Shown here in pieces: positions 6,125 through 38,820 of a stretch of DNA of 64,000 nt. A program made the position numbers and the translations under genes. Source of the stretch: an uncultured Actinomycetes bacterium (GTDB lineage: Bacteria > Actinomycetota > UBA4738 > HRBIN12); contig CAWKKN010000006.1 of the NCBI GenBank assembly GCA_963850315.1, positions 4,843 to 68,842 of the forward strand, written 5' to 3'. The notes below the pieces were generated by a model. The model did not search any database. It was not told the DNA's origin and saw only the letters and a list, made by a program, of their open reading frames with translations. The first letter of the stretch is position 1. Every line of letters starts with the position of its first letter.

Positions 6125-6128
6125 CGCG

Positions 6129-7924: not shown

Positions 7925-7985
7925 CCCCTTTCATCGGGACCTGGCTCCGACGGCGAGCACTACGTCAGCGACTCGAGATCGCCCA

Positions 7986-16355: not shown

Positions 16356-16443
16356 AGGCCCTGGCGCGACGTCTCCTCGGAGACCAGATACCCGGCTACG
16401 GTCCCTCCAACGGAGGCCTGAAGGGGTCCGAACTCGCGACCCA

Positions 16444-17505: not shown

Positions 17506-17575
17506 CGCCGGAGGATACAGAAGTCCTGCTCAACAGCCGGAACGTTGGTTTCCGCCGACCGCTGAGCGCGCCGCC

Positions 17576-20728: not shown

Positions 20729-20729
20729 T

Positions 20730-23700
20730 TCACATCACCGCCCGGGTGATCGTCGCCTGGGCGCCATCCGGCGCGATGACATCGACGCGCACCCACCCCG
20801 TGCCCCGCAGCACTGCCCCGATCGTCCGCCCACCGCTCGTTGCCGGGACCTGGCGCAGCGGGATCGGTGCCGGGTCGGCGAAGACGTCGTCGCCGGGTTG
20901 GAAGACGCGGATCGTCCCGATATCGTCGGTGACCTCCAGTAGGTGGGGCGGAAGCGGTAACGGCGGGAACTCCGACAGCCCGATGTGCACACGGTATGGA
21001 CCCATGCCCGCCACGTCGTCGGGCACCGACGTCTCGAAGCTGAGCACCCGTCCGCGGCCGACGATGTTCACGATGTTCACGTTGGTGATGTCCGGCGGAC
21101 TCACCGGGTCGGTCGGCGGCACCGTCACCACCTGCTCGGTGAGCCGTCCGAGCGGGTCGGTGACACGGAGTCGCACCGCGAGCTGATCGGTGAACGCGGC
21201 CCGTGCGATCTGCAAGTGCAGGTCGGTGCTCGTTCCCGTCGACGGGTCGCGCCATAACCCGGATGCGTTCGCTGCCGGGGCGATCTGTGGGCAGTGGTCG
21301 AAGTCGGTGTCCGGTGCGGAGCCTGGCACAGGCGGGGCCGGGTAGCGGAACAGCAGCTCGCTCGTCCCGTCGTCCTGAGTGACGATGACCTCGGCCTCGA
21401 CCCGGTGCGGGCCGAGCGGCGTCGGCGCCACCGGTGCGCCCGTGACGGTGTCGATACGTACGTGCGGCGTGCCGCCCATCGGCGTCGTGACGACGAGCGG
21501 CGCGAGATCGGGATTGCCGGCCGGCGGCACGACCACCTGGCGGATCGTGCTCGGCTGCGACCGCCCGCCGTACTGCCCGCGCGTCGGGTCGTCGGCGGCC
21601 CAGGCGACGGCGCGGTAGTAGACCGGCTGCCACGATCCGGGCACGGGGTCGATGCCGTCGACGCGGCCGAGTGGCTGGTTCTCGCCAGGGTTTCCGGACA
21701 CCGTCGGCGTCACGGTGACCGTCGAGCTGCTGCCCGAGACGGAGGCGACCGGCGGACCCATCGTGTCGAGATCGATCGCCGCCTCGGCGACGCGGGTGCG
21801 GTAGAGGTCGATCCGGCCGACCGTCACCCCGGGCCGAGCGCTGAGCCGGAACGCCGCCTCGGTACGCCGCCGGGGTGACCGCCGTGTCGGGGCGCCCGAC
21901 TACCTCGATGGTCGGCGGGTTCGGCGCAACGACGTGCGGCGCGGCATACGCGATCGGCCGCTTGCGGCGATCAGGGTCGCTCAGGTCGGGCCAGGCCGAC
22001 TCGATCTGGCCGGCGCTGAGCCCGAGGACCGCGAAGAGGTGGATGTCCTTCGTGCCGCGGGGCAACGTGACGGCGAGGCTCGTTCCGGTGACCGGTGTGG
22101 CGTTCACGCGGGTGAAGACACGCCGCGTCGGGTTGTCGCGGAACGCGTCGCGGAGGGTTGTCAGCCGGTCGCTGAGCGTGTCGGCGAACGACGGGTCGCC
22201 CCGCCCGCACGCGTCGAGGAGGTCCGTCTCGCTGCAGGCGTAGGCGAAGTAGCCGACGGCACCGGGCGCGGCCGGCCACTGCAGGAGCGCGTGGTACTCG
22301 CCGGCGGCGTCCGCCATGCTCGTCAGCAGCACGTCCTCGTGCTCGATCGTCAGCACCGGCGGACGCGGGTCCGCCGCCGAGGCGATGAGCGGGCTGGTGC
22401 TCCACGAGCCGACCCGACCCGGTGCGCGTGCCTCGGTGCCGCGAGCCCACAGCGCCATTCCGATCGCGCCGGCGGCCGAGTAGTCCAGTCCGAAGCCGGT
22501 GATCGTCAGTCGATACCGCCGTGGTCCCGCGATCGCGCCCTGCAGCCCGGACGAGAGCGTATGCGCCTGCTCGTCGAAGTACTGGATCGACGCGCTCGAG
22601 GCCACCGCCCGCGACGACGGTGGCGACGCCTGTGCTGTCGAATTCGATCGCGACGGGCACGCCGCTGCCTCCGGCCAGGGACGGGGCCAGGCCGGCGGGG
22701 ACGGAGAGGTCGCCGGGCGGGTCGTCCAGGCGGGCCTCGGTGTACATGCGCCCGACGAGGTCGATACGGCACGGGCTCCGGCTCGCCCAGTTCCACGCGA
22801 TGTCGACGCTGAGCGCGCCCGGGCAGACCGCCGCGGCGGCGGTGACGTCCCAGCTCGCGGCGATCAGCGACGCGACCCCCACCGGCGGCTCGCCGAGGGC
22901 GGTGCTCGCCGAGGCCCAGTCGCTCCACTGCCCGAACAGGTCCTGGTGCGCGACGCCGTAGCTCAGCTGGTTCGGGTTCGGCGCCGAAGCCAGGTGATAC
23001 CTGTCGTCGAGCGCGCTCAGCCGACCCGAGCCCGCGAGCGCCTCGCTGGTGGACGCGCCGATCGGCTGCACCGCGGTGTCGTGGGGTCGTGGGTCCATGA
23101 TCGCCTCGACGCCGCCGGCAGGCGCCTGTTGAGTGCGAACCAGGGCGTAGCTGCCGACGCGGAGCGGCAGATCGTCGGCGAGGCGGTCCCAGCCGGGGCG
23201 GATGACGCCGATCCAGTCGAGATCGATGTCGTCCGGCGCCGCGAGGCCGTCGACGGTCGCCGCGACACCGGTCGGCGTGGGCGGCATGAGCGCCATACCC
23301 GGTGCGAACACGATCGCGGCGTACTCGAGCGGGCCCGGCTCGTTGTTCGTCCCGTTCTCGTAGTGCGCGGTGACCATGTAGTCGTAGCGGGTCGACGCCT
23401 CGTACAGCACGGAACCCTGGTCACCGACCGGCTCCTCGAAGGCCGTGCCGAAGCCGGCGATCAGCGACGCGAGCGGGTCGGTCGCGGCGCCGTACACGAG
23501 CGTTCTGAGCGGGCTGATCGTCGCCGTCGGGTCGTTGAGGTTCGGCGAGGCGAGGCTCTGCGTCGTGGTGAACGCGGCCTGCTGCTCGGCGGGCACGTTC
23601 ACCATCTGCCGCAGCAGGGGCAGCAAGCTCTCGTCGACCACCTTCAACATTGCCTTCGGGTCGGCGAGCTCGCCACGCCGGGGCGAGTGAACCCGTGTCG

Positions 23701-24383
23701 AGCAGCGGGCGCCACCCGTAGAAGGGCGCGCCGCGGCGGAACCGGTCGAGCGCTGCGTCGGGCGGGTCCTGCGGCGCCCCGACGAGCCCCTGCTGCTCGT
23801 CGAGGTTCAGCACGTTGTTGAAGGTCTGGTCGACGGGCAGCCCGACGATCTCGATCTTCTGCCAGTCGAGGTCCTGGGCAGCGTCGCCGTCGAGGCCGCT
23901 GAGACCTGTGAGCACGACGCCGGGCGAGATCAGCAGGCACTGGATCGCCGGCGCCGAGAAGGCGTACTGCGTCTGTGCGGTGCTTAGCGTCTGCGGTGAG
24001 ATCATCGGCGAGGCGTAGGGCGCGCCGGCGAAGGCGATCACGTAGCCGGCAGGGCCCTGCAACCCGGCGCGGACGAACACGCGAGGCCGGTCGAACACGA
24101 TCAGGGTGGCGCCCATGAAGTCCGCGGTGCCGTAGGGGATCGGCGCCTCGTTCTGAGCGGGCGCGGACCCTCGGCGCCACACGGTGAACGGCTCGGTCGG
24201 GTACCCGAGCGCCGGATCGGTCACCCACCGCAGCTGGACGAGCCGGCTGCCCTTCAGGCCGCGATCGGCGGCGACCTTCTGCGGTGGGGGGACGTGTTCG
24301 ATGTCGCGCCGGTAGGCGAGCGTCCAGTCGACGACCGATGCGAGCAGCAGGAACCTCGTCGGATCGACGACGCGCGGTGCCAT
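20730..24383 (-). CDS. large (~1200 aa) beta-rich hypothetical protein with Fn3/Ig-like modules (second gene; frameshifted)
   Basis: ORF pieces 23421..24641, 21971..23650, 20722..22605 and 20730..21827 join into one gene; motifs YGVAHQDLFGQWSDW, YYRAVAW, LRVTDPLGR; TGATG overlap with the upstream gene. Confidence 0.7.
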
Positions 24384-27300
24384 CAGCCCTCCTCCCATGG
24401 CGCGCTCGCGAACGTCATGTCGAAGACCGTGACGCTGCGCTCGGCGGGGTCGAGGAACGGCAGATCGGCGAACGCAGCTGCGACGAGGTCGAGGCCGAGC
24501 TGCTTGCCCCGTTGGGTCGGGGCGAGCACGACGAGCGCCCGCTGCCCACCCGGCGCGACGACGATGCCGTTGGGCGCGACCGTCGCGGCCGTCGCGGCGC
24601 TGGGCCGCAGCAGCAGCCACTCCCGCGCGGCGAGGATCCACCGCTCCGCAGGAGCCGGGCCGGTCGAGTCGGTGACCTTCGACGGGTAGCTGCGGGTCCG
24701 CAAGAGCGGTTCGGTCGCGTCCACCAGGACGGCCGCCGGCTGCGGGTCGGACGAGCCGCTCTGCTCCCAGAAGACGACGACGCGGGCCCGGGTCGGTGTC
24801 TCGAGCGGCTCGATGCCATGCGCGCGCAGTTGGTCGTCGAGCTCCGAGCCGGCCGGCCGTCGTCCGGCGAAGAAGCCCGCGATCGCACCGAACGCGCCCG
24901 CCGGTGCCGAGCGCGCCGTCGGCGTCGGGGAGATGATCGATGCGGCAAACTGCTCGAACGTCCCGTACAGGCCGGTGCTGAAGTGACGGCGGAAGATGCT
25001 CGGGCCGGCAGTACCGTCGGGTGCACCGGCGTCGACGAGCTCGACGTCGAGGAGATAGTCGGTGCAGCTGTTCAGCGGGATCTTGATGTCGACCTGGCTG
25101 TGCCGGGAGCGGGCACCGTCGACCGGCACGCAGGTGCCCTCATCACCGAGCTGGGCGACCGCCTGGGCAATCGCGTCCTCGAACGGCGACAGCAGGGTCG
25201 CCGGCACCGTCACGACCGTCGACGGGTCTACGGGGTAGGGGTGCGGCACCGCCGGGGTTGACTGCGGTTGCTGCGCCGACGCCGCCTGGAAGCGGACCTG
25301 CATCTTCTTGCCGTAGCGGGTCAGCAACCGGTCGAGGTCCTGCGTGTTGAAGACGAGCTTCACGTCCTCCTGACCGAAATACCCCTTCTCCGCCTCGTCC
25401 GGGACGGTCATCAGCAGCCAGGAGTCCAGGCGCACCGGAACCGGCGGTGTGGAGGCGAACTGCAGCTTGGCTGCGTCCTGCGGGTCGGCGACGATGCGGT
25501 CGGTGCGGAACCAGAAATGTTGCGTGAACGTCGGCGCGTCGGAGTCGTCGAGCCGCTTGCCGGTCGAATCCACCGTGATGCGGTAGAGCGAGTCGGCGTA
25601 CAGGAACGCGTTGGTGTCGCTCGCCGACCCGAGCAGCTGGGTCAGCACCTGCTGGTCGCTGTTGAGCTGCGTGGTGTCCCAGTCGACGCGCAGCTTCTCC
25701 GACCAGCGCGTCTCGGCCGCGGCGGCGACGTAGTACGGCGGGGCGATCTGCGGGCGTTGCTCGGCGAACTCGGCGATGACGATCGGCGTGCCCAGCCCGT
25801 GGGTGCCCAGCTCGACACGGTCGGCGAACTCGTCCGGATCGAGTGCTACGTACACGGGGACGGTCTTGCTGCTCTGCTGCCAGCGCAGCAGGTCGTCGAT
25901 GTCATCGGCCCAGGGGCCGGCCGGGTCGGTCCAGCGCGGGGGCAGCGGGTTCGACCAGATGAGGTTCGCGGTGGTGACGACGGCCCGCTGGTGCTCCGCG
26001 CCGTCGGAACCGAGGGCGCGCACGACGATGTGGCCGCCCTCGAGCATCGCGCGTGGGATGAACAGCAGCACGCCGAAGGTGGCGAAGGCTCCTGTGGAGA
26101 TCACGACGACGTCGTCGAGCTCGCCGTGCGTGACACCACGTTGGTCGAGCTCGACCGCGACCTCGTCGGACCTCGACTGGTCGCCGATCGCGATCGGGCG
26201 GCCGTCGTCGAGCATCGGCGCCTGCAGCAGGTGGACGGCGCAACGGGTACGGATCGGCACGAGGGAGGTGAGGTCCGGGGCCAGCACCGCGGTCGAGGCG
26301 GCGAGCTGGGCCGGCGACAGTGCGGCCTTCAGCTCGGCCACGCCGATGCCGGCTCCGGCGTGCAGCGCGCGCAGCGCGTCACCGACGGACATCGCGGGCG
26401 CCTCGCGCTCCCCCCGCGGGAGTGCGGTGCTGACCTTGCGGTGCAGATCCGCGGAGATGCGCAGCGGCTGCTGCCCCGGGCTGCGGACGAGCGCAGCGTG
26501 CACCGGGTCGTCGGGCGCGACCGCCGCACCTGTTGTTGGCACCTCGGTGACCGGCCCGTGCCCGCCGACGACGAGCCGGGGCGGCAGCGGGCCGGGCGAA
26601 GCGGCGGCTGCGTGTTCGGCATCGAGCAGGTGCAACCACGGGTTGACGTCTAGTCCGCGTTCGCACGGAACGGTGCCACCGAGGACGAAGGCGGGGAAGA
26701 TCCCGCGCTGAGCGTCCAAGACCGGGTCGCCGCTGCGCCAGCGCTCGCCGACGTGCAGCGCGCTTGGCGGGGCCGAGCTGCGCACCGACCCGAGCGGGTC
26801 CGGCCACGCTATGCCCTCCAGGTCCCACCCCGTCGCCGAGAAGCCGAGCGGCTCGAACCGGAAGGTCCACAGCTGCTCGGCGGCCGGAGCGGCCGGAGCG
26901 CAGATCGTTCCGTAGCGCTCGGTCAACGAGTCGGTGAGACGGTCGGTCTTCTCGATCGCCTTGGTGGCAGGCGACGGTGCCCAGGTGAGAAGGGCCAGCT
27001 GCGCGACCGGGCTGGGGTCGGTGGGCCCCGCGAGTGTCCACCACACGGCCGGCCCGCTCGGTTGGTCGATGGCGTCCCCGGCAGGCTGCCCCGTGGCCGG
27101 GTCGATCCGCTCGAGGGTGACCACCGAGACGACGTACTGGTACCGGTCGCCACCGTGCTCGCAGTAGGCGGCCTTCGGATCGGGCGACGCCGGGTTGGGC
27201 GCCCCAGGCGACGAGCCGATCCCGGTGTTCAGTCCACCGATGGTCAGGTTGTCCGTCACGGCAGGGGGCACGGCCATCGCGATGATCGGGATGGCGTCCA

Positions 27301-30300
27301 CGGGTACCACCGGCAGCGCGTCTCCGGCGCCGGGCACGGCATCCGACACGAGGGCGTCGCCGAGGCTGACGTCGATGCCGCGGTCGACGCCGGTGCCCTG
27401 CGCCAGGGCCGGCGAGCGGCTCTGCAGCGACACCTTGGTCACCAGCGGTGGGATCGGTGTGGAGGTGTCGCCACCGGTGCTCAGCGAGATCTCGACGCAG
27501 CCGGAGACCTCGAAGAAGAGGAAGCTGACGTGCCCGCACGCCTTGCCGTCGACCGACATCCCGAAGCTGCTGTCGTCGTGCTCGGCCACCACGACGTTCA
27601 GCTCGGCGTCCGCTCCGATGGAGACGATGAACAGCCGCAGCTCACCCGAGACGTAGATGACGCCGGCCAGCGTGAACGGCTGGAAGCCGAGCTCGGCGTC
27701 CATGCCGCCGCCGATGCGCAGGTAGAGCCCGACGTCGGTGTCGCCCCACGTGAACGACGCGGCCACCCCCAGGCCGAGCGAGAACCCGGTCAGCGCCGGC
27801 AGCGTGAATCCGTGCACCGGGTAGGCGGGCAGGCCGTCGCCCTTCGCCATCAGGTAGCCGGTGCCCTTGACGATGCCCGAGCACGTCGACCTCGACCGGC
27901 TGGCCGAGGTCCTTGCGCGCGCCGAGGTAGACGTGCCATTTGGACGCGTCGGAGCCGAACGGGAACATCGCCTCGACCGGGATCTTGATCGTGATGAGAT
28001 CGGGGATCTCCCAGGAGATCAGCACGCCGATGAGGAAGTGATCCGGCGTGATCTCGATGACGGCGAGGATGCCGCCCGACCCGCCGATCTCGTCCATGTC
28101 CGGCGGCAGCGAGATGATCCGCGCATTCATCATGATCACGATGCGCGGGCCGGGCAGCTGGATCAGCAGCGTCCCGTCCAGGTTGAGGATGAAGCCGCCC
28201 TCCATCGTCCCGATCAGGATGCCGGCACCGAAGGCCCAGTGGTCGAGGTACGGGGACCCAGAGCTTCTCGCCTTGCTTGTTGGCGAGCTTGTTGGGTTCG
28301 CCGTCGGCGTGCTCGAGCCAGGTGAGCGCGGACGAGGGCGAGCCAGGGCTGTCCCACTGCGTGCTGCGGTCGTAGTGCATGCCGAAGATGCCGCGGAAGC
28401 CGAAGATCCCGAGTCCGGACGTGCCGAGCGGGATGCCCACGGGAAGCACGATGTCGAGTCCGACGTAGACGCCTGTCGCGGTGCCGCCGCTCGGCAGTGT
28501 GATGGTGGCGATCTCGACCGCCGCGGCGACGCGCAAGTCGATCGGCCGCAGCGTCAGGTCGAGCTGGCCGCCGATCGTCGCGACGGGGTGGCCCTGCGGG
28601 TCGGTGCTGTGCGCCATCTGGACGAAGCCGGAACCCACCAGCGCGCCAGCGATGTCGACACTCACGCCGAGCGCGGTGAGCTCGGGCGGCCGCGTCGGGT
28701 CGTCGAGGTAGACGCGCACCCCGGCGCGGTCGACACTGACCACACCGAGGTCGACGCTCATCCCGATGTCGATCTCGAGGGTGAGCGGGTTCGTCCGCGA
28801 CAGGCGTGCCGCGAGGATGCGCAGGATCTTGCCGAGCGGATCTGCGACGACGAGCGACCCGCTGCCCTGAACGTCGATCGTGTAACCGCGTGAGGAGTCG
28901 AAGATCGGGTGGAGCTGGAAGGCGGCCGCGCCCATCGCGTCGCGGTTGGCCGTGTGCACGCCGATCGCCTTGTAGCGGACGGTGAGGGGCTTGTCGGGAT
29001 TGATGGAGAGGACGTCGACGATCGGTTCGGTGGTCGCCCAGGCGACGGCGATGTCGACGAGGATGTCGGTCTCAACCTCGTCGGTGCCGCGTCGGAGTCC
29101 GACGTGCACCTCGCCCCCGTACCAGACGACGCGCTCGACCTCGAGGAATGGCAGCGCCCCGATGACGGCAGGAATCGCCATCGCCGCGGCCGAGAGTCCG
29201 ACGTCGACGATCGCGGCGCCCGGGCTCTCGCTCGACGCCTGCTGTGCGGCCGCGTCGAGTGGCAGATCGGCGAGCAGCGGCCAGAACGTGAGGTAGCTGC
29301 CCATCAGGTTGCGCACGACGTCGCGCGGCGCTCGCTGCTCGCCCGGGAGCCAGCCCCACACCATGAGGCCGGACGTGTCGGCGGGATCAGCACCGATCGA
29401 GCCGACGATCTGCTCGCGGCCTGTGCTCGGATCGGTCTGCACCAGGAGGCGGAAGTTGGTGATGCCGTCGGTGGGGTTGTCGGGCCCGACCGGGACGCCC
29501 TGCTGCAGGCTGCGTCCCTTCGGCGAGTTGTCGGTGTTCACCGCGGTCGGCGCGAGCGACTCCTCGACGAACGCCTGCAGGTAGAGCTGCAGGTCGAACT
29601 CGGCGGCGATGAGATCACCCTTGACGTACCGGACTATCAGCTTCGCCGAACGGAACGTCGCGGGCGGGTCGGGCTCGGTCGGGGTGGGGTCGACCGGGAC
29701 GATGTTCTGCGGCGGTGGCGGAGCGGCGGGTCGGCTGATCGTCACGCTCGAGGAGTGCTCCGGCGTGCTGACCGCTGGCAGACTCACGATCGCGCGCCAG
29801 TAGTCGCGGTCGTTCGGCACCTCGTGCGACGGGTCGTTCCAGTCGGCGTCGCTCACCCACTGGTCGATCTCGGCCTTTGTGGGCGCCGTCTTGTCGGGCG
29901 TGATCGTGGACTTCAGGTGCGGCTCCGGGTACGCCGCCGCGATGAGGTCGCGCGCGGTCTGGGCTCGGCGGCCGGCGAGCAAGTAGTTGTGCTGCCGGTG
30001 CCAGTCGTCGTCGATGCCCTCGAAGCTGGCCCGTCCCTCGATCGTGATGGTGATGTCCTGGGCGGTGTCGTGAGCGGTCCTCGCGACGGCGTCGAAATGG
30101 TCCTTGTACTGAGTCAGCGGGTCGACGTCGGGCGGCTCGAAAACGTTGACCGTCTTGCTGATGGCCTTGGACGAGGAGTAGGAGCGCGGGTAGGAGTCCT
30201 CCGGCTTCGACGGCGGACGGTCGAAGAAGAAGTAGACGGTGTCGGCGCGGGCGGCCGCCGCGGTGCCCGGCTTGCGCGCGGTGACGGTGTGCTGCTCGCC

Positions 30301-31809
30301 GGCAGCCAGGGGAACCTGCACCGACGCCGACGGCCCCGTCTCGGCGCCATTGTCGACCTTCCACATCAACATCGGGTCGGGCGGCACGCTGGTGAGCACC
30401 ACGTCGGCGTCGGTCTGTGTCTGCAGCGAGATCGTGGGCGTACCGGTCGGCGGGGTCATGGTCGCCGGTCGGGTCGGCGGCTGCGTAGGCGCGGGCGACG
30501 GCAGCAGCGCCGGCGCCACGACTAGTTGCGCTGTGATCGTCAACGTCACCGTTTTCGGGACCGGACCGGAGTCGGTGACGCTGATCGCGATCTCGGCCGT
30601 GTTGTCGGGCGCGTTCGACAGGTCGACCACGAAGATCGTGCCCTGCTCTGGCGCGCCGCCCGCGATGGTGACCTTCCGCGTGTAAGGCATTCGTCCGCCG
30701 GAGACGTCGACGATCATGCGGGTGTGCGCGGGCACCCGGGCGGTGGCGGTCGTCGCGCCGGTCGACTCAATGCCGTACGTCTTGTTGTTCGCGTCGACGA
30801 ACCGGGCGCTGACCTGGATCGTGGGATCGCCCTGCTCGATGATCGCGATCTCGAAGTCGCCCCAGACCCCCGCGCTGTCGTGCCCGATTCCGAAGAGGAA
30901 CTCGTGCGCGCCGGCCTCGAACGCCATGTTGCGCACCCCGTTGGGCGAGAAGAACACCCGGGCCTCGGGCAGGTAGAGACCGGTCCAGTCGTCACCCACC
31001 CCCGCCTTGTCCTTCAGCGCCGGCGGGGTGTTGTCAGCCGACAGGTCCAGCGTGGCCGAGCGGAACCCGATGCCGACCGTGTTCGAGCCGGATCCGCCGA
31101 CGTAGGCGTACGACGGCGACATCGAGACCAGTTCGGCGACACCGAGGTCACCCGGGTCGTCGAGCCCGGTTGCACCGAGGGAGACGAGCTCGAAGCGCAG
31201 CTGGCTCGGATCGGCGTCGCCGTGGGTGAGCCGGAAACGCAGCTTCGGCAGGCTGAGCGTGACCTCGTTCACCGAGTCGTCCGGCACGAGGGTGCCGGTG
31301 TCGGCGAGTCTTGCGGGGTGGAGGAAGGGGGGGCGCAGGCTCGGCGCGTCCAGGATCAGGTCGAGGACGAACCCGGTGGAGGGGTAGTCGGTCGTCGGGC
31401 CGTTCGCCGGGCCCGCGAGCGCGTCGAGCACGGCCTTGGTTTGCTGGAAGGCCGTGCTGGTGGCAATCGAGCCCTCGCCGGCGAAGACGATGTCGCTGCG
31501 GATGCGAGGGACCAGCAGCTCGAACTCGATCGCGGTTTCGGCGAGGTCGATGATGGGCTGGCGGTTCGCCGGGTCATACACGGGGGCCGCCTCGTCCACG
31601 CCGCCCGTGACCGAGAACGCGCCGTTGGGGAACAGCTGCGCCCAGCCGTTGAACTCGCCGCGCCCGCGAATGGTGACGCCTAGATCGTCGCCTGCCTGCT
31701 CGTAGGTCGTGACGCGTAGGGCGGAGGCGAGGGCGTGGAAGCTACCGAGGGTCTCGCCGCGAAGGACATAGGGGAGCACTAGGTCCAGCAGGGCGAGGTT
31801 CGCCATCAT
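24383..31809 (-). CDS. giant (~2470 aa) hypothetical protein with an internal OmpA-like domain and long amphipathic beta-strand regions (first gene; frameshifts near 28260 and 27875)
   Basis: ORFs 27850..31809, 27642..28205 and 24383..27850 are contiguous; IEGRASFEG...HNYLLAGRRAQTA; GIPLGTSGLGIFGFRGIFGMHY. Confidence 0.75.
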
Positions 31810-32504
31810 TCATCGCACCCCGACCTGTAGGTCGTCCTAGGTACTGACCCTGGTTGCGAGGGCCTCCGCATTGCCGAGGCTCTCTGGGGGGTTCCAGCTC
31901 GTAGTGCTGCATATGAGTTTGGGGTAGACGATCCGCGAATTCGAATGGGCGTCCGCCGACAACCCCTCGGGCACGATGTAGAAACAGACCGCGAGCGACG
32001 AGCGCCACTTCGGCTGAATACCTGGTCGCTGAAGTTCGTATCGATCATGTCGCGTGCGAACGCCATACGGGTCCAGCTGACGTCCTGTGGCGGCATGAGA
32101 GACATAACGGTTGACATTGCTTTCCCTCTCTCGAACGGAAAGGTCGAGCGTCAATTGCGTACCTGCGTCTCTCACACATGGCACTCACCCCAGATCGCCC
32201 AGGCGGGCCGGGCACCTTTCCCCGGGGCCGCCTCCGATACCACTGGCAACGGCGGGGATATGCGGATCACCGTTACGCCATCTGCCCTGGGGCGCAATCA
32301 GGATTTTGGGCGTCACCTGTCTGGCCTACACCCAGTCGATATGCCTCGATGCAGCGCGACCCTCTCGGTGAACGTCGAGGGCGACCAACCGCCAACCCTT
32401 GTGGAGTCCGTGCGCGACATTGGGAGGGTGGCGCGCAGCTACGGGCAGGACCCAGACGAGCTGTTCGCCTACCTCGCCGACTTCGCGGCGGGCGCGCTCG
32501 GGTA

Positions 32505-32814
32505 GAGAGCGCAAGTTCGCGGCGATGTTGTTGGGGTCATCGAGCAGCCGGGTGAAGGTCAGCGGCGAGATGTTGTAGAACTGCTCGCCCGCCACCGAGC
32601 GCAGGACCGGCTCGACATTCTCGACCTTGCCCTTGAGCGTCTTGGCCCGCTTGAGGACCGCGTCCTTGGTGGGCTCCAGGACGCAGTCGAGCCGGCGGAT
32701 GACGGCCAGAGGCAGGATGACTTTGCCGTAGTCAGACTGCTTGTAGGTGCCCCGAAGCAACTCGGCGATGGACTTGATGAACGCCGCGTGGTTCCTGATA
32801 TCCCCGTTGCTCAC
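32505..32814 (-). pseudogene. hsdM: type I restriction-modification M subunit, N-terminal fragment only
   Basis: NHAAFIKSIAELLRGTYKQSDYGKVILPLAVIRRLDCVLEPTK...LLDDPNNIAANL; similarity stops at ~32505 with no methyltransferase domain, hsdS or hsdR. Confidence 0.85.
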
Positions 32815-32826
32815 GCCTGGTCTCCC

Positions 32827-33036
32827 CTACTTGATCCGTCCGGTCTTGCGCGCCCACGCCACGATCTCGGTCCGCAGCCACAGCAGCGTTCGTCCGCGGC
32901 CGAGGGTCACCACCGGTCGGGGGAAGTCCTCGTATCGCTTCGAGTACGTGGACACGCTGTTCGCGTGCTTCAGCCCGAGCACCTCCGCCACAGCTCTCGC
33001 GTCCACCAGATCATCGATGTTCACCCGCCTTCCCAT
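32827..33036 (-). CDS. AlpA/excisionase-like winged-HTH DNA-binding protein
   Basis: LVDARAVAEVLGL...DFPRPV...LLWLRTEIVAWA. Confidence 0.8.
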   Translation of the reverse strand: MGRRVNIDDLVDARAVAEVLGLKHANSVSTYSKRYEDFPRPVVTLGRGRTLLWLRTEIVAWARKTGRIK

Positions 33037-33042
33037 AGGGGC

Positions 33043-33102
33043 AGTCTAAGGATATTGACAGACACGGTCAAAGACGCTAGCCTGTGTCTAAGGTTATAGA
33101 CA
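33043..33102. promoter_or_regulatory. overlapping divergent promoters with two 17-bp operators
   Basis: plus strand TTGACA(33055)-17-TAGCCT(33078); minus strand TTGACC(33071)-17-TAGACT(33048), 6 nt before the HTH ATG; repeats at 33044-33060 and 33086-33102. Confidence 0.75.
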
Positions 33103-33169
33103 TCCCAGCAACCAGGAGGCCACGAGGACCACCGAGAACACCGCGGATCGCGGCACAAGACAGACAGAT

Positions 33170-33225
33170 GGCCCCGGCGGCGCGTGAACGCCCCGGGGCC
33201 CGGACGGACCTACATAGGAGGCCCG
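33170..33225 (+). promoter_or_regulatory. structured 5' leader: GC hairpin plus a small hairpin overlapping the SD
   Basis: GGCCCCGG(33170-33177)/CCGGGGCC(33193-33200); CCTA-CA-TAGG overlapping AGGAGG before ATG 33228. Confidence 0.5.
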
Positions 33226-33227
33226 AC

Positions 33228-33692
33228 ATGGAAAGCGTACGTCACCACCAGGGCGCCAGCATGACGCGCCCCGCAGAACTCGCACCCGGCGAACTCGTCT
33301 GGGCGAGCATCGTGAACGGCATCGAGAACCCGCTCGCGCGCGGGAAGGCGAGGCCGGTCGTCCTGGTCGAGCCCAGCGGCTGGGCGTGGAAGACGATCGG
33401 GCTCACGACCCGCCCGCGCCACTACGACGGGACCCCGAGGGTTGCGATCCCGAACCCGCACGCGGTCGGTCTCAAGTTCCCCGGATGGCTGTGGAGCGGC
33501 AAGCTGTGCTTCACGTCCGGCATCGACATCCAGGACCACATCGGGTGGGTCGACATGCCGTTGGCGTTCGAGGTCACCAAGCTCGCGGGTCTCGGGGGGC
33601 CGACCATCCACGAGCTGCTCGCCGCAGCCCGTGAGCACCACGATGCGCCGGTTCGCACCGACCTCTCCGTGATCGAAAGGGGGTCGGCATGA
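33228..33692 (+). CDS. PemK/MazF-like endoribonuclease-fold protein
   Basis: PGELVWA...GKARPVVLV...IGLTT resembles the MazF GDIxW...KxRPxLV...PxTS pattern. Confidence 0.55.
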   Translation: MESVRHHQGASMTRPAELAPGELVWASIVNGIENPLARGKARPVVLVEPSGWAWKTIGLTTRPRHYDGTPRVAIPNPHAVGLKFPGWLWSGKLCFTSGIDIQDHIGWVDMPLAFEVTKLAGLGGPTIHELLAAAREHHDAPVRTDLSVIERGSA

Positions 33693-34402
33693 GCGGCAGG
33701 AACGGATCCACCAACGTGGTGAAGCTCGCGCCGAGCAGCCTGACCTTCCTGTGGGATGAGTGCCAGAGGTGCTTCTGGCTCTCCGCGCGCGGCGTGTTGA
33801 AGCGTCCGGCGGGGATCTTCCCCAAGGTCTTCACCATGCTCGACAACCAGACGAAGGACTTCTTCTACAACAAGCGCTCGGAGGTGATGGCCGAAGGGCT
33901 GCGCCCAGGTCGCGTCGCCTTCGGCGACCGTTGGGTCCGTTCGAGGCCGCTGCCCGTCCCGGGACACGACACCAAGGTCACACTCCAGGGGAAGATCGAC
34001 ACGGCGCTCGCGTATGACGACGGCTCGTTCGGGATCGTCGACTTCAAGACGTCGGAGCCGAAGGCCAGCCACGTCGACTTCTACGGACGCCAGTTGGCCA
34101 GCTACGCCCTGGCAGCGGAGAACCCGGTCGAGGGTGCCCTCGATCTGGCCCCGGTGAGCCAGTTGGGTCTGCTGTGCGTGGAGCCGGTCGCCATGATCGG
34201 TGTCGGGGACGACGTCGCCTACAAGGGAATGACGCACTTCCTCGAGATCGAGCGTGACGACGACGCCTTCATGGCATTCCTCTCCCAGGTCCTCTACGTC
34301 CTGGAGAAGCCCGAACCACCGCCAGCAGGTGCGAAGTGCGGGTACTGCGCGTACCTCGCGAACGGATCGCTCGTGCTCCTGACGGGGAGTTTCGGCCCCT
34401 GA
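33689..34402 (+). CDS. PD-(D/E)XK nuclease (RecB/AddB/Cas4-like) with four cysteines
   Basis: APSSL...ECQRCFW, GKID...IVDFKT, QLASY, CGYC; ATGA overlap with the upstream gene. Confidence 0.88.
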   Translation: MSGRNGSTNVVKLAPSSLTFLWDECQRCFWLSARGVLKRPAGIFPKVFTMLDNQTKDFFYNKRSEVMAEGLRPGRVAFGDRWVRSRPLPVPGHDTKVTLQGKIDTALAYDDGSFGIVDFKTSEPKASHVDFYGRQLASYALAAENPVEGALDLAPVSQLGLLCVEPVAMIGVGDDVAYKGMTHFLEIERDDDAFMAFLSQVLYVLEKPEPPPAGAKCGYCAYLANGSLVLLTGSFGP

Positions 34403-34564
34403 CCGGTCTTGCTGTTAGCCACGCGCAGGGTCGCCATACCTAGTAGAGGCCAACGCCTGGGCCTCGACCGACCTGAAGAAAGTTTCCAGGCCGTAGTGCA
34501 GAACCCCGCCCGTAGCCGCGGGAAGGGGTGAGGGGCGACGTGCGCCCCACATGTGAGGTTCACC

Positions 34565-35485
34565 ATGAGCAGCAACAACAAGAAGGACATCGAGCGCCGC
34601 ATCGAGGGGTACATCCCCCGCGACATCCCCGCGCCGGTGTGGGAGGAGAAGCTCCGCCCGTTCGTCATACCGGCCCTCCACGCCGCAGCCCCCGCTGGCC
34701 TGCCGGCGATGGAGCGCGATGCGAGGGTCCTCACCCTGATCGCCGCGTGGTGCGTGAAGGAGGGGATGCCGCTCGAGATCGAGCTCGTGCTCGACCCCGA
34801 CACGGTAGAGCGTTTCTGCTCGAAGGGGCTCAAGAAGACGGCGTCCCGTCCCTCCTACCGGGCGACGCTCCGCAAGCTCGGCCGCGAGCTGACCACGACG
34901 GCGCCGTGGGAGCCGCGCCCGGAGCCCATGCCGGCCCGTCTCCCCGCGCCGCCGTACTCCAAGGCCGAGCTGGTGGCCCTCATCGAGGACGCCGCCCGCC
35001 AGTCGACGCCGGGAAGGAAGCGCAAGGCCCAGACGCTCATCGCCCTCGGCGTCGGCGCCGGCCTTGACGGCCGCTGGGCGAGGAACGTGCGCGGCACCGA
35101 TGTGATCAGGATCGGCTGGGGTGTGGGCGCCAAGGTCGGCGCTCCCAGCCCGCGTGTGGTGCCGGTCCTCGCCGCCTACGAGGAAGAGATCGTCCGCCTG
35201 GCCGAGGAGGCCGGCGACGAGTACCTCGTGGGCGGCAGCACGACCCACAGGAACCGCACGAACGAGATCGCGGCACGCTTCGAGGACGGCCACAACCACC
35301 CGAAGCTGTCGTCTGCTCGCCTGCGCTCCACGTGGATCGTCACGCACCTCACCATGGGAACCCGTCTGCCGGAACTTCTCGCCGCGGCCGGGACGAAGCG
35401 CATCGAGACCTTCGACGCTCTCCTCAAGTACGTGCCGGAGATGGACGCGGCGAAGGCCCTGGACATGCTGCGGGGGTCGGAGTGA
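34565..35485 (+). CDS. tyrosine-recombinase-fold protein with a degenerate active site
   Basis: PYSKAEL...IALGVGAGLDGRW...VRGTDV...RVVPV...SSARLRSTWIVTHL...AAGTK...KY follows the phage-integrase box I/II layout. Confidence 0.65.
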   Translation: MSSNNKKDIERRIEGYIPRDIPAPVWEEKLRPFVIPALHAAAPAGLPAMERDARVLTLIAAWCVKEGMPLEIELVLDPDTVERFCSKGLKKTASRPSYRATLRKLGRELTTTAPWEPRPEPMPARLPAPPYSKAELVALIEDAARQSTPGRKRKAQTLIALGVGAGLDGRWARNVRGTDVIRIGWGVGAKVGAPSPRVVPVLAAYEEEIVRLAEEAGDEYLVGGSTTHRNRTNEIAARFEDGHNHPKLSSARLRSTWIVTHLTMGTRLPELLAAAGTKRIETFDALLKYVPEMDAAKALDMLRGSE

Positions 35486-37218
35486 GCGACACGACCCGCC
35501 GCTCGAGGGCGCCGATCGACACCTCTGGGAGTCGCCCACCGACGCCGGCCGAGTTCACCACTGCGAGGCGCATCATCGCGAGGTCCGGCGTCCTGCCCGT
35601 GCTGCAAGACCGCCTCGATCATGCCGATGGTCGCCCGCGCTCGCTGAGCGTTGAGGGCCTGCTCGTAGCGATGCAGATCAACGGCCTCGTTCGCCACCAC
35701 CAGGGGATCCTCGCTGGGTTCGCCCGCGTGTTGAACTCCCTCACCGATCGCCAGCGCACCACCCTCGGGATCAGGAACTGGAACCCGGCCCAGGCGTACG
35801 ACCGCGTCGACCAACTCTTCAACCTGCTCGCCAAGGCGACCGAACAGGGCTGGGATGCGGTGATCGATGGACAACCTGTTCGCATCGATGACGACTGGGT
35901 TCCGGACAGGCTCGTGGCCGCGAGCCTCCAAGACCTTCCAGCCTGGAGTAGCAGCATCGCTGTGGACGGGACCGACATCGACACGTGGGCGAAGAGGCCC
36001 GCGTGGGTCGATGACGTGGATCTTGAGTTCGATGGGGATCACGATCACCAGATCCCAGCGGTCCTTGCTCCCAGTAGGAAGAAGGGGGAGAAGAAGCCAA
36101 TCCCCGCGTACGGATACGACGAGCAAGGAGAGCCGATCTTCACCAGGGATCGCGACGCTCGCTGGGGACACCGCTCAGCGACGAGCAGCCGCAGCAGCGG
36201 CAGCTACATCGGTTACGAGCTGCACACGGCCGTGCTCGCCCGTGACACAGCGTGGTCCGACGGGATCCGCAAGCTCAAGCTGGGCCCCGACGTCCCGCCG
36301 GTGATCACCATGATCTCGCTGGTGCCCGCGGGCTCGAAGCGCGACGCCGCGGTGGTGCCCAAGCTCATCGCGGCGAAGGAGACTGGCTTCGATGTCGACG
36401 ACCTCATCTGGGACCGCGGGTACTCGCAGCTCCTCCCGGAGAACACCTCACACCCTCTGCACCGCGCGGGGATCGGGCAGACCTTCCGCCCGAAGGACCA
36501 CCAGCGGGGCCGCAAGCCGTTCCGTGACGATGCACTCTTGATCGAGGGGCAACTCGTGAACGCCCATGTCCCCGAGGAGCTCCAGGGTCTGTTGCCGATG
36601 CCGTCGATGAAGGCCACCGCCGAGGAGAGCGCGAAGTACGAGGAGCCGTTCAACCGCCTGGCCCGGTACCGCCTCGAGCGCCACGCCGGCCCTGACGACG
36701 AAGGGGCGACCAGGTGGAGGTGCCCGTTCTGCGCCGGCCGCTTGCGCTCACGCCAGATCCCAGCATCCATGCGGAGGTCACGCACCACCCCGCTCGTGGA
36801 CCTTCCACCCGGCGCGACATGCTGTAACGGCATCGTCACCGCTTCGGCGGAGGAGCTCCCCCATCGGCAGAACTTCTTCCCGGGGACGACCGCGTGGCGC
36901 AACTCGTACAACCGCCGTCAGGTCGTCGAGGGCGTGAACGGAATGCTGAAGGGCGGTTTCGTCAACATCCAGCACAAGTTCTTCCGCGTGTTCGGTCTCA
37001 CCAAGACGAAGCTCCTGCTCGCGTTCACCGTGGTCGGGTACAACCTCGAGGCCATCCGCTCGTTCCTCGCGAAGAAGGCCGCCAAGGCGGTCACCTTCGC
37101 GAAGAGCCAGGTGAACAGGAAGAAACGCCGCAAGGGAACGTGGACTCAGATCCTCGGATCACCTGATCAGTCGGTATCCGACCTGACGGAATCCGGGCGC
37201 GCACCTCCGACGACCTGA
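35482..37218 (+). CDS. DDE transposase of the IS4 superfamily (IS1182/IS5-like), ~578 aa
   Basis: AVDGTD, DARWGHR...YIGYELH, IWDRGYS, and Y-x2-R-x3-E-x6-K (YNRRQVVEGVNGMLK); CPFC/CC insertion; GTGA overlap with the upstream gene. Confidence 0.85.
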   Translation: MSDTTRRSRAPIDTSGSRPPTPAEFTTARRIIARSGVLPVLQDRLDHADGRPRSLSVEGLLVAMQINGLVRHHQGILAGFARVLNSLTDRQRTTLGIRNWNPAQAYDRVDQLFNLLAKATEQGWDAVIDGQPVRIDDDWVPDRLVAASLQDLPAWSSSIAVDGTDIDTWAKRPAWVDDVDLEFDGDHDHQIPAVLAPSRKKGEKKPIPAYGYDEQGEPIFTRDRDARWGHRSATSSRSSGSYIGYELHTAVLARDTAWSDGIRKLKLGPDVPPVITMISLVPAGSKRDAAVVPKLIAAKETGFDVDDLIWDRGYSQLLPENTSHPLHRAGIGQTFRPKDHQRGRKPFRDDALLIEGQLVNAHVPEELQGLLPMPSMKATAEESAKYEEPFNRLARYRLERHAGPDDEGATRWRCPFCAGRLRSRQIPASMRRSRTTPLVDLPPGATCCNGIVTASAEELPHRQNFFPGTTAWRNSYNRRQVVEGVNGMLKGGFVNIQHKFFRVFGLTKTKLLLAFTVVGYNLEAIRSFLAKKAAKAVTFAKSQVNRKKRRKGTWTQILGSPDQSVSDLTESGRAPPTT

Positions 37219-37250
37219 TCCGCACCGGTCCACACCACTCGTTCTTGATC

Positions 37251-37284
37251 AAGGACGTCATCGGCATGTTTCGACGACGTCCTT
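37251..37284 (+). terminator. hairpin downstream of the transposase, possible intrinsic terminator
   Basis: AAGGACGTC...GACGTCCTT stem with a weak pyrimidine tail. Confidence 0.5.
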
Positions 37285-37403
37285 CGTGCTTTCAAGCGGC
37301 TGACACCGACCGAATGGACGACGCCGGCGCCCGGCTCGGTGCTGTTCGTGCCTCCAAAGGACCCGCGATCGCGCTGGACGCTGATCCAGTGCTTCTTCAG
37401 CGG

Positions 37404-37436
37404 AGTTCTGAGATGTCAGGGGCTCCAGTTATGAGA
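37404..37436. repeat. two 10-bp direct repeats 23 bp apart, candidate transposase-binding sites of an element end
   Basis: AGTTCTGAGA (37404-37413) and AGTTATGAGA (37427-37436). Confidence 0.5.
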
Positions 37437-37443
37437 ACACCCC

Positions 37444-37459
37444 TGAGTGGGAGGAGGAG
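37444..37459. repeat. 16-bp direct repeat of the tRNA-Tyr 3' end (target site duplication)
   Basis: TGAGTGGGAGGAGGAG identical at 37444-37459 and 38735-38750. Confidence 0.9.
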
Positions 37460-38734
37460 TGTTTGGTTTCACGACATAGTTGACAGATGTCTCGTGACAT
37501 CGTTGACACCCCTGGTGAGGGGGTGGAGCGATGTCGGAGTCGTTGGCTCGGGTGGTGGTCACCGCTGTGCTGGTGGAGGGCCGGTCCAAGGCGGAGGTGG
37601 CCCGGGACTACGGGTTGTCGCGGCAGTGGGTCCACGAGTTGGTGCGACGATACGAGGCCGAACGGGACGAGGGTCTGGTTCCCCGCAGCCGGCGGCCGAG
37701 GTCGAACCCGAGGAGCACACCCGAGGCGCTCGAAGACCGGATCGTCGCGCTGCGGAAGGAGCTGGACGACCAGGGGCTCGATGCAGGCGCCCACACCATC
37801 GCCTACCACCTGGAACATCGCGGGATCACACCACCGTCGGTTGCGACGATCTGGCGGATCCTTTCGCGTCGTGGCTTCATCACCCCCCAGCCCCAGAAGC
37901 GTCCGAAGAGTGCCTCGATCCGGTTCTGCGCCGAGATGCCCAACGAGCGTTGGCAAGAAGACACGACGCACTGGGCCCTGGCCAACGGCACCGACGTCGA
38001 GATCTTGAACGCGATCGATGACCATTCGCGGTTCCTCGTCGGATCGGATGCCCGGGTGGTGTTCAAGGCTGCCGACGTGGTGGCGTGCTTCCATCTGGCC
38101 GCTGCGGCCCACGGCTTCCCGGCGGAGCTGCTCACCGACAACGGGGCGGTGTTCACGGCTGCTCCCCGGGGTGGGCGCTGCGCGATCGAGCTCGAGTGCG
38201 ACCGGTTGGGGATCCGCGACATCAACTCCCGTCCCTACCACCCCCAGACCTGCGGCAAGGTGGAGCGGTTCCACCAGACGTTGAAGAAGTGGCTCGCCAA
38301 GCAGGACGCACCCGCGACGATCTCCGAGCTCCAGGGGCTGCTCGACCGCTTCCGCACCTACTACAACGACGTGCGTCCCCACCGGGGCATCGGACGGCGC
38401 CCACCGGCGGCGGCATACGCAGCCAGGCCGAAGGACTGCCCGCGGGGACCGGTGATCGAGGGGACCTACCGGGTGCGGAGGGACCGGATCGACGGCGGTG
38501 GGGCGGTCACCCTTCGATACGACTCGAAGCTGTTGCACATCAAGGTGGGCAGGCGCTACGCCGGGGTGCGAGTGCTCCTGCTCGTGGCCGGGCTCGACGT
38601 GCGGATCGTGACCGAAGACGGTGCGCTCCTGCGCGCGCTCACGATCGATCCCGCGCGGAGCTACCAGGGACTCGGGAAGCGATGACGTGCAAGGATGTCG
38701 TGAGACAGGTGTCGTCGATGTCGCGAGACATCAA
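37460..38734 (+). mobile_element. IS481-family insertion sequence
   Basis: starts TGT; iterated imperfect inverted ends (GTTTCACGACATAGTTGACA and GTCTCGTGACATCGTTGACA versus ATGTCGTGAGACA and ATGTCGCGAGACA); single transposase. Confidence 0.9.
37531..38685 (+). CDS. IS481-family transposase
   Basis: N-terminal HTH, PNERWQED, IDDHSR, LTDNG, QTCGKVERFHQTLK, YNDVRPHRGI. Confidence 0.95.
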   Translation: MSESLARVVVTAVLVEGRSKAEVARDYGLSRQWVHELVRRYEAERDEGLVPRSRRPRSNPRSTPEALEDRIVALRKELDDQGLDAGAHTIAYHLEHRGITPPSVATIWRILSRRGFITPQPQKRPKSASIRFCAEMPNERWQEDTTHWALANGTDVEILNAIDDHSRFLVGSDARVVFKAADVVACFHLAAAAHGFPAELLTDNGAVFTAAPRGGRCAIELECDRLGIRDINSRPYHPQTCGKVERFHQTLKKWLAKQDAPATISELQGLLDRFRTYYNDVRPHRGIGRRPPAAAYAARPKDCPRGPVIEGTYRVRRDRIDGGGAVTLRYDSKLLHIKVGRRYAGVRVLLLVAGLDVRIVTEDGALLRALTIDPARSYQGLGKR

Positions 38735-38738
38735 TGAG

Positions 38739-38820
38739 TGGGAGGAGGAGGATTCGAACCTCCGTAGGCTACGCCGGCGATTTTACAGACCGCTCCCTTT
38801 GGCCGCTCGGGCATCCTCCC
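38739..38820 (-). tRNA. tRNA-Tyr(GTA), CCA not encoded
   Basis: GGGAGGATGCCCGAGCGGCCAAAGGGAGCGGTCTGTAAAATCGCCGGCGTAGCCTACGGAGGTTCGAATCCTCCTCCTCCCA: cloverleaf, long variable arm, GTTCGAAT T-loop. Confidence 0.97.

Follow-up and report, generated by a model that had tools for sequence, protein, structure and literature searches.

Tn7 couples the TnsB transposase to a target selector, TnsD/TniQ, and inserts at attTn7 downstream of glmS, while Tn7-like relatives and CRISPR-associated transposons (CASTs) belonging to type V-K home next to tRNA genes. Tn3-family transposons of the Tn4430/Tn5401 type carry a DDE transposase, TnpA, together with an active tyrosine recombinase, TnpI, that resolves cointegrates, and Tn5 generates a target duplication of 9 bp. 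Islands at tRNA and transfer-messenger RNA (tmRNA) genes, together referred to here as tDNAs, are usually credited to tyrosine integrases, as for the Islander-type islands (PMC4383910), and casposons, which are Cas1-type transposons, likewise target the 3′ ends of tRNA genes (PMC6977970, PMC6614799). Here, we describe a family of large transposons that uses the same address, apparently by DDE transposition. It was analysed in a stretch of 64,000 nucleotides (hereafter, the window) from a high-GC Actinomycetota metagenome-assembled genome (MAG; genome G000, contig C6, bases 4843-68842). The conserved engine of this previously unannotated family in Actinomycetota is a pair of overlapping open reading frames (ORFs), ORF1 and ORF2. 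The main features of the window are:

1..37443, plus strand: body of the 38.5-kb transposon, whose left end lies outside the window at G000:C6:3762
34565..35485, plus strand: ORF1, 306 aa (ATG at 34565), homologue of Xer/Cre-fold tyrosine recombinases with a degenerate active site
35482..37218, plus strand: ORF2, 578 aa (GTG at 35482, stop at 37218), putative IS4/Tn5-type DDE transposase
37404..37443, plus strand: right end, with inner repeat AGTTCTGAGA and terminal inverted repeat GTTATGAGAACACCCC
37444..37448, plus strand: right copy of the 5-bp target duplication TGAGT, from a comparison of the flanks
37460..38734, plus strand: IS481-family insertion sequence (IS), a later insertion outside the element proper (NF033577, E 3.4e-72)
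38738..38820, minus strand: tRNA-Tyr (GTA), the target gene, intact (ARAGORN)

A gene pair beside tRNA and tmRNA 3′ ends

ORF1 and ORF2 are an obligate gene pair. They overlap by GTGA at 35482-35485, where the stop codon of ORF1 (TGA, 35483-35485) meets the start codon of ORF2 (GTG, 35482); this overlap had been reported in an earlier note on this DNA and was borne out when the coordinates were re-read. The earlier note had also raised the question of whether the two genes always co-occur, and we found an ORF2 homologue directly after the ORF1 homologue in 14/14 loci of species-representative genomes and in 45/46 metagenome loci with at least 200 bp beyond the ORF1 match (the exception being L174). 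The 4-bp stop/start overlap was seen in the window and in seven further loci. Pairing was also kept in the two plasmid matches inspected of the four found, on Streptomyces clavuligerus pSCL3 and on a Rhodococcus opacus plasmid, where the proteins encoded at the ORF1 position aligned with the ORF1 family at hhalign probabilities of 100% and 99.9%, respectively. An additional 265-aa gene overlaps the start of ORF1 in the Rhodococcus plasmid. One locus (L019) was considered as a natural ORF1-ORF2 fusion and rejected; it contains a 1-nt frame change, which may be a sequencing error, and the GTGA overlap is intact in the other frame.

The family is widespread. At E ≤ 0.001 it comprised 461 proteins among 7,999 candidates scored for ORF1, and the ORF1 profile retrieved 2,934 cluster representatives (50% identity) from 1.84 billion proteins. 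Carriers numbered 13 in a 301-genome sample of the phylum, or 10/298 when three unpublished genomes were left aside. Both genes are labelled "hypothetical protein" in RefSeq and metagenome sources, and a full-text literature search, which covered listings and the starts of abstracts, found no description of the gene pair or of the element family. A search of sequencing runs returned shares of at most 0.15 of the sampled words and listed no RNA run.

The element family inserts precisely, and in one orientation, at the 3′ ends of tDNAs (tRNA-Tyr, -Lys, -Leu, -Ala and tmRNA). At the right end in the window, two direct repeats, AGTTCTGAGA at 37404-37413 and AGTTATGAGA at 37427-37436, are followed by the terminus ...GAGAACACCCC at 37443 (also written ...GAACACCCC), with the terminal inverted repeat GTTATGAGAACACCCC at 37428-37443. 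The IS481 element next to it is flanked by the exact 16-bp direct repeat TGAGTGGGAGGAGGAG at 37444-37459 and 38735-38750 (2 matches, 0.08 expected by chance). When the IS481 and one repeat copy were removed in silico, TGAG remained between 37443 and the tRNA-Tyr discriminator, that is, the 4 bp that had been noted before.

The same junction was found across the family. Twelve of the 14 genome loci were readable past the right end, and in 11 of these 12 ARAGORN called a tRNA or tmRNA oriented with its 3′ end towards the element: tRNA-Tyr in three (L009, L013, L020), tRNA-Lys in one (L021) and tmRNA in seven (L010, L011, L012, L014, L015, L018, L019). In all 12, as in the window, the subterminal region held two direct repeats spaced by about 23 bp and the element terminated in ...GAACAYSCC; exactly four variable bases, then a T complementing the discriminator, were present at all 13 readable genome junctions (window included). 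Among the 24 metagenome loci that extend past ORF2, 14 had a called tDNA (tmRNA 8, Tyr 2, Leu(CAG) 1, Ala(CGC) 3), three further loci stopped inside a tmRNA 3′ end at the contig end, and one faced a tRNA-like T arm; the 4-bp spacer fitted all metagenome junctions except the most distant, L172, which was ambiguous. Outside the taxonomic family of the window, G137, with an ORF1 only 25% identical, showed a canonical tmRNA junction (...TTCAACGAACACCCC/GCGG/T...), and the elements of G331 and G229 faced tRNA-Leu genes; the contig of G253 was too short for its target to be read. Random placement of homologous elements relative to tRNAs was not observed; their termini lie 4 bp away from the discriminator of a tRNA or tmRNA gene. 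The proposal in the earlier note that the element targets tRNA genes held for the position of the junction; the range of targets proved wider, with tmRNA as the commonest target of the family.

The left inverted repeat, GGGGTGTTCTCAGAA, lies at G000:C6:3762, 1,081 bp before window base 1. This inverted form occurs in G000 only at C6:2641 and C6:3762, right-end copies finish at C6:2617, C6:3744 and C6:42285 (window position 37443), and the terminal 15-mer, searched in both orientations, was found at five genomic places, all within one array:

C6:3762-42285: unit 1, 38.5 kb
C6:2641-3744: unit 2, 1.1 kb, a gene-poor derivative (L008)
ending at C6:2617: unit 3, a further right end

TGAGT flanks both ends of the 38.5-kb unit (left copy at G000:C6:3757-3761) and combines the tRNA trailer (4 bp) with the base complementary to the discriminator. 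Inverted repeats with identical 5-bp flanks were found in 5/5 complete elements; in genomes other than G000, sizes and flanking 5-mers were:

G007: 5.3 kb, lacking ORF1 and ORF2, GGAGT
G045: 12.0 kb, TTGGT
G044: 54.6 kb, CCCTT
G041: 46.6 kb, TCCTT

The last base of the 5-mer is always the discriminator position, and because the other four bases vary between elements, even those with near-identical ends, the 5-mer is a target duplication and not a recombination core. Since inverted repeats and the 5-bp duplication bound 38.5 kb, the mobile unit is larger than the 2.9 kb (34565-37443) to which it had been assigned, a span that is only the right-end module of the transposon. As predicted by repeated insertion at one spot, an older right end and a new left end in G045 are separated by the 5-mer TTGGT alone. 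Occupancy at tRNA-Tyr is polymorphic, because the right-end motif was present within 150 bp of this gene in 10/25 relatives and absent in 15/25.

These junctions bear on a reading in which the tRNA adjacency is passive, an integrase island having settled at tRNA-Tyr with ORF1-ORF2 as an unrelated IS-like passenger, or as a decayed integrase beside a transposase. Tandem elements and another IS do mark the tRNA-Tyr gene as a hot spot, and the cargo resembles that of a generic island. However, the terminus lies exactly 4 bp from the discriminator at five tDNA species and down to 25% ORF1 identity, and the borders show inverted repeats and a 5-bp duplication in place of a displaced tDNA fragment or att-type repeat. 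Conservation of ORF1 throughout the family (invariant G164, G166 and R197; 2,934 cluster representatives) does not look like decay either, and the six PF00589 matches in the G000 genome are on contigs C1, C4 and C5, none of them in the window. We thus disfavour passive adjacency and consider it scarcely credible.

Compared with integrase islands, the elements have in common the tRNA/tmRNA 3′ targets, island-size cargo, tandem accretion, an AlpA-like helix-turn-helix (HTH) gene and, in ORF1, the integrase fold. In contrast to them, ORF1 lacks catalytic residues, insertion occurs downstream of the discriminator and not within the gene, and the ends are inverted repeats with a 5-bp duplication rather than an att core with a displaced tDNA fragment; no direct repeat of a tDNA fragment bounds the element, and the 16-bp repeat of tDNA sequence seen in the window is that of the IS481. 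Casposons resemble the elements in their terminal inverted repeats, target duplication and insertion at tRNA gene 3′ ends, but their enzyme, the Cas1 casposase, is unrelated, their duplication is longer and, as far as the cited accounts go, they have no recombinase-fold partner.

Several further observations were made on the ends. At left ends, two direct repeats of the type (A)GTnTCCACAGGTTAAG ... GTnTCCACA lie about 50-95 bp inside the terminus (read in G000:C6:3762-3860 and 2641-2735, G044, G041 and G045); they are conserved between elements that target tRNA-Tyr and those that target tmRNA, and right ends lack them. Inverted-repeat units of 0.9-5.3 kb lacking ORF1 and ORF2 were found at C6:2641-3744 and in G007 (L053:1959-2861 and 2901-8221), and many right ends beside tRNA-Tyr (L027-L049) have no ORF2 within 1.5 kb, which suggests either that such non-autonomous units are mobilised in trans or that they have decayed. 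A site resembling the terminal 15-mer at window 4016-4030 (2 mismatches) was rejected as an end; it is in a coding region and lacks the end architecture.

In one tmRNA-targeting clade (L011, L018, L019, and also G045 and the left flanks of G044/G041), a hairpin is located some 57-83 bp inward of the right terminus. Its 3′ arm, CGCCACCTCCA, has an 11-nt match to the tmRNA 3′ end and its 5′ arm, GGTGGCGG, matches the target strand; Tyr-type ends carry a related motif, GCCTCCAAC. The other tmRNA-type loci lack the hairpin, which could serve as a binding site or represent an attP relic. That elements carry a copy of their own target was rejected as a general rule: CGCCACCTCCA, 57 bp inside the right end, was present in only 3/7 tmRNA-type genome loci, and a 10-nt match was found in 1/4 Tyr-type loci.

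Tetranucleotide arrays occur within 150 bp of tRNA-Tyr at both empty and occupied sites in many relatives (L024, L026, L028-L030, L032-L034, L036, L045-L047), an example being GGTT GGTT GGTT GGGT GGGT; on the tRNA strand, the CCCA/CCAA repeats echo the last 4 nt of the tRNA. Similar arrays are present in the spacers between tandem elements (G000:C6:2618-2640 and 3745-3761). They could be insertion/excision footprints, and as such might have been left by the ORF1-ORF2 system, or could reflect simple slippage; their 4-bp period is at odds with a 5-bp duplication.

The ORF1 and ORF2 proteins

The tyrosine-recombinase fold attributed to ORF1 in the earlier note was recovered by structure prediction and by family profile. 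The AlphaFold2 model (pLDDT 95.8, pTM 0.88; 74-sequence alignment) gave 56 Foldseek matches in the PDB at E ≤ 0.001, and all rows listed were tyrosine recombinases, among them Cre, XerH, XerA, Tre, Tn1549 Int, IntI, lambda Int and Brujita Int; the alignments covered both domains over about 270-360 columns, with TM 0.35-0.60. The profile of the 74-sequence family matched XerA (4a8e, E 3.2e-11) and, over both domains, XerD (1a0p, E 1.3e-4) in the PDB. PF00589 was matched by 12/74 family members (best E 5.5e-8) and a SAM-like N-terminal domain by 2/74. The ORF1 protein of the window itself had 0 matches in Pfam and NCBIfam, and a PDB profile search with a smaller family alignment found nothing. 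Alignment of the family with one XerC-like protein of the same genome by hhalign, which gave probabilities of 4% (28 sequences) and 37% (74 sequences) in the right register, is superseded by the PDB profile and Foldseek results.

Residues were counted in 74 diverse family members, with the register taken from the profile alignment to the solved XerA and XerD. This register confirmed the catalytic boxes as they had previously been read in the window:

Arg I: GAGLDGRW in the window, GAGLRVSE in Xer; Arg replaced by Asp
Lys turn: VGAPSPR in the window, GKGxKxR in Xer; Lys lost
His I / Arg II: ARLRSTW in the window, HxLRHxF in Xer; His I lost, Arg II kept
His II: AAGT in the window, LGH in Xer; His II lost

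The Arg I column contained D44 N5 A4 S3 K3, with R outside the seven commonest residues; K was present at the Lys turn in none of the 74 members, and the His I and His II columns were occupied by G/S/R/A and L/V/I, respectively. Arg II, which was R in 73/74, is the only catalytic residue kept. Because these counts show the catalytic positions replaced, loss of the active site is a property of the whole family and not of the copy in the window, and homologues retaining the full R-K-H-R-H-Y set, which had been raised as a possibility, were not found among the 74. The earlier suggestion that a candidate Tyr remains did not survive this comparison: Y289 lies in a column of Y27/F21/H11, and where the Xer proteins have their catalytic Tyr, 62/74 members have Leu. 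As judged from sequence and model, ORF1 is a homologue of the tyrosine-recombinase superfamily and presumably not a catalytically active member of it.

An ORF1 that is still chemically active through a non-canonical site, performing second-strand end cleavage in the manner of TnsA, excision or resolution, would account for the retention of Arg II together with R197 (74/74) and R170 (49/74), the latter near the lost Arg I, and for the few relatives that keep Arg I (both halves of P0163). Against this, neither of the two Tyr columns described above holds a conserved nucleophile, the whole family lacks the Lys and both His, and a variable 5-bp duplication with inverted repeats is not a product of tyrosine recombination. 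We regard an active ORF1 as quite improbable. In this respect the elements differ from Tn4430 and Tn5401, with which they share the encoding of a DDE transposase and a tyrosine-recombinase-fold protein in one transposon: as the catalytic residues found in TnpI are lost across the ORF1 family, resolution by the canonical mechanism is excluded.

Among deep relatives, P0163 (623 aa) and G110 (621 aa) are internally duplicated, and their halves keep Arg I and lack the Lys and both His. Tandem arrangements of two or three ORF1-type paralogues, or duplicated proteins, are also found in other actinobacterial families (G110 L105:810-2675 and 2860-3705; G190 L104; G096; G137; P0158, P0163, P0240, P0249); the internally duplicated proteins have about 620-700 aa, and in both arrangements the genes lie upstream of the DDE gene.

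ORF2 is best read as a divergent IS4/Tn5-type transposase. The D-D-E triad described earlier (D162, D311, E483) was invariant in 11/11 aligned homologues, as was R479, and K490 was present in 9/11. In the window, Y476-R479-E483-K490 has the Y-(2)-R-(3)-E-(6)-K spacing of the YREK signature that had also been pointed out; its Tyr is not conserved, however, being mostly M in homologues. A CxxC...CC insertion lies between the second Asp and the Glu. In its AlphaFold2 model (pLDDT 77), Tn5 transposase chains accounted for five of the best six Foldseek rows. A PDB profile search with the ORF2 alignment found nothing. All 120 ORF2 homologues listed are named "hypothetical protein", with a precomputed Pfam domain in none, and the same holds for the RefSeq plasmid homologues. 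The triad, the Y-R-E-K spacing in the window and an insertion domain that separates the second Asp from the Glu are shared with the IS4 superfamily (Tn5/IS50, IS1182); unlike members of that superfamily, ORF2 is part of a two-gene, site-specific module with 12-55 kb of cargo, and the duplication is about 5 bp here against the 9 bp of Tn5.

Choice of the target site

We think it rather probable that ORF1 is the address reader and ORF2 the transposase of a large tDNA-homing transposon. The two genes would constitute a transposition module at the right end of a DDE transposon of the cut-and-paste type. ORF2, the likely catalyst, would recognise the terminal inverted repeats GGGGTGTTCnnnAA, with one copy at the left end and two direct copies at the right end, and would cut the target with a stagger of at least 5 bp, the discriminator position included. 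The role of ORF1 would be to bind acceptor- and T-arm-encoding DNA in particular tRNA or tmRNA genes, as the attB core is bound by tDNA-specific integrases, and to recruit or license ORF2, probably through contact between the two proteins, so that insertion has one orientation and leaves the right end 4 bp downstream from the discriminator. ORF1 is favoured as the reader because of its descent from site-recognising enzymes, the obligate pairing and the switches between similar targets. The picture in the earlier note of a dead integrase-fold partner in a tRNA-directed DDE element was supported by the comparisons made here, and the part of it that makes ORF1 the selector keeps its interpretative character.

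Target switches among close relatives involve similar sequences, as tmRNA and tRNA-Ala share T+GGAGGTG. In the trees, targeters of tRNA-Ala(CGC) are nested in a tmRNA-targeting clade, and Tyr- and tmRNA-targeters are sisters. The target label changed six times on the ORF1 tree and seven times on the ORF2 tree, compared with 8-10 in the shuffles printed (25-/26-row trees); earlier 11-row trees of both genes had lacked resolution.

The choice of target could instead be intrinsic to ORF2, through its N-terminal helical domain or the CxxC...CC insertion, with ORF1 acting as an end-binding, assembly or regulatory/inhibitory subunit. Plasmid copies away from tRNAs retain both the ORF1-ORF2 pairing and a right end with two repeats, and because pairing persists there, ORF1 may well have a role that is independent of tDNAs. 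Moreover, the additional conserved left-end repeats (AGTnTCCACAGGTTAAG type) could be ORF1 sites, and the target label follows the trees of the two proteins about equally well. On the other hand, ORF1 descends from proteins that recognise tDNA core sites and has kept both DNA-binding domains at high model confidence, whereas we know of no Tn5-type transposase that reads a distant specific target. Tandem or internally duplicated ORF1 paralogues (G110, P0163) fit a dimer on dyad-symmetric DNA, with no indication of which DNA that would be. Taking these points together, we consider a target choice intrinsic to ORF2 rather unlikely.

Several observations weigh against ORF1 as reader and ORF2 as a Tn5-like transposase of one large mobile unit. 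Regarding the reader, phylogeny does not tell which protein sets the target, the label tracking the two trees about equally. Two distant plasmid pairs have the two-repeat right end with no tRNA nearby. The target at L017 resembles a tRNA 3′ end and received no ARAGORN or Rfam call; metagenome loci L127 and L166 abut non-tRNA sequence, L129, L141, L154 and L155 have no recognisable end, and for G096, G110 and G190, three of the six informative genomes of other actinobacterial families, no tDNA was found within the stretch examined. Many loci come from related MAGs and may lack independence, and L020 and G015 appear to be one junction. As for ORF2, it is below the curated cut-off of every transposase model in Pfam and NCBIfam: PF13751 (DDE_Tnp_1_6), which aligned with no more than the C-terminal 55 aa, reached 24.6 bits (cut-off 25.1), and NF033551 (IS1182) 32 bits (cut-off 270). 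The structural match to Tn5 is weak (E 0.007-0.036, TM 0.29-0.39, none at E ≤ 0.001). Since curated models are missed and the Tn5 match is weak, membership of the IS4 superfamily is not clean. Finally, movement of the whole 38.5 kb as one unit would follow from the ends and the duplication only; the size of the latter is ambiguous, between 5 and 8 bp, as GGG(G) opens the left repeat and (T)GG(G) the targets, and the genes to the left of the array (G000:C6:769-2514) were found beside tRNA-Tyr in none of 30 relatives' loci when 1.5-kb flanks were compared for an empty site.

With ORF1 as the proposed reader, the element is similar to Tn7 in being a DDE transposon with large cargo that inserts at a fixed orientation and distance downstream of a conserved essential gene and leaves the gene undisrupted, and further in its 5-bp target duplication, its asymmetric, multiple transposase-binding repeats and its separate non-catalytic target reader. 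Unlike in Tn7, ORF2 has no rve match in Pfam, and so there is no TnsB-type transposase but a Tn5/IS4-like one; the proposed selector is a dead tyrosine recombinase and not TniQ-like, and two proteins take the place of four or five. Homologues of TnsA, TnsC or TniQ were not noticed in the module in a search that was not exhaustive, and no AAA+ gene is part of the conserved module, the remainder of the element having been screened with Pfam for large ORFs only.

As a site-specific DDE transposon with a dedicated partner, the element has a fair chance of deserving the status of a new class. We see the chances as evenly balanced that it represents a distinct class of mobile element in which a tyrosine integrase lost catalysis and was kept purely as the address reader of a Tn5-like transposase. 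If so, a two-protein system would place 12-55 kb at a defined base next to a tDNA and would have been retargeted several times (Tyr, Lys, Leu, Ala, tmRNA), and tDNA-associated islands would, in some Actinomycetota, be the work of this system instead of integrases. It would then be a clear case of a recombinase exapted to a non-catalytic role and a second, independent solution to safe-site transposition beside Tn7/TnsD. The family is invisible to current annotation, and island finders keyed to integrases or known transposases consequently miss its elements. Being compact, encoded by two genes and varied in its natural specificity, a system that inserts tens of kilobases at one defined base would also be of interest as a scaffold for genome engineering.

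Neighbouring genes, cargo and the IS481 element

Upstream of the ORF1-ORF2 module, the window contains three further genes:

32827..33036, minus strand: AlpA-like small HTH gene, 69 aa (weak Pfam match to Phage_AlpA, E 0.041)
33084..33692, plus strand: 202-aa ORF of no family, upstream of the module (no match in Pfam and NCBIfam)
33689..34402, plus strand: PD-(D/E)XK (Cas4/RecB-like) nuclease gene (PF12705, E 1.7e-8)

Homologues of the AlpA-like gene, for which a promoter-like site is present at 33071-33043, lie divergently just upstream of ORF1 in L010, L011, L014, L016 and L017, and its product is possibly a regulator or directionality factor of the module. The 202-aa ORF has a homologue at the equivalent position in L013 and L020. 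The nuclease gene is an accessory present in some elements only: homologues were found immediately upstream of ORF1 in L013, L020 and L021 and were not detected in the other 11/14 genome loci.

In the cargo, a Pfam screen of large ORFs revealed SDR, TetR, HAD, DAG kinase, LuxR-AAA, BON and DUF2252 genes and an HsdM_N fragment. The last is a 162-aa ORF beside the module (32326-32814, minus strand), which has the HsdM N-terminal domain only (E 6.8e-17) and is apparently a truncated type I methylase gene. The biggest cargo block (18077-31809, minus strand) consists of five consecutive ORFs of 883, 365, 559, 1155 and 1319 aa with coding-type GC3, none of which had a Pfam match at E ≤ 0.001.

The IS481 that interrupts the junction, whose transposase gene spans 37531-38685, itself appears to target tRNA 3′ ends; a literature search at the level of listings found no description of a tRNA-targeting IS481. 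Both copies in G000 lie 12 nt inside a tRNA gene, namely tRNA-Tyr and tRNA-Gly-CCC (C6:192231-193504; L006/L078), and at both the direct repeats of 16-17 bp restore the tRNA gene. No tRNA was found at two of eight loci of published relatives (L071 and L075); in the other 6/8 (L069, L070, L073, L074, L076, L079), IS481 homologues with 66-82% identity abut the 3′ ends of tRNA-Leu, -Ser and -Arg genes, including four different Arg genes. An IS481-like end is also located beside tRNA-Tyr in G024 (L025). It is always the IS481 end downstream of the transposase gene that is turned towards the tRNA.

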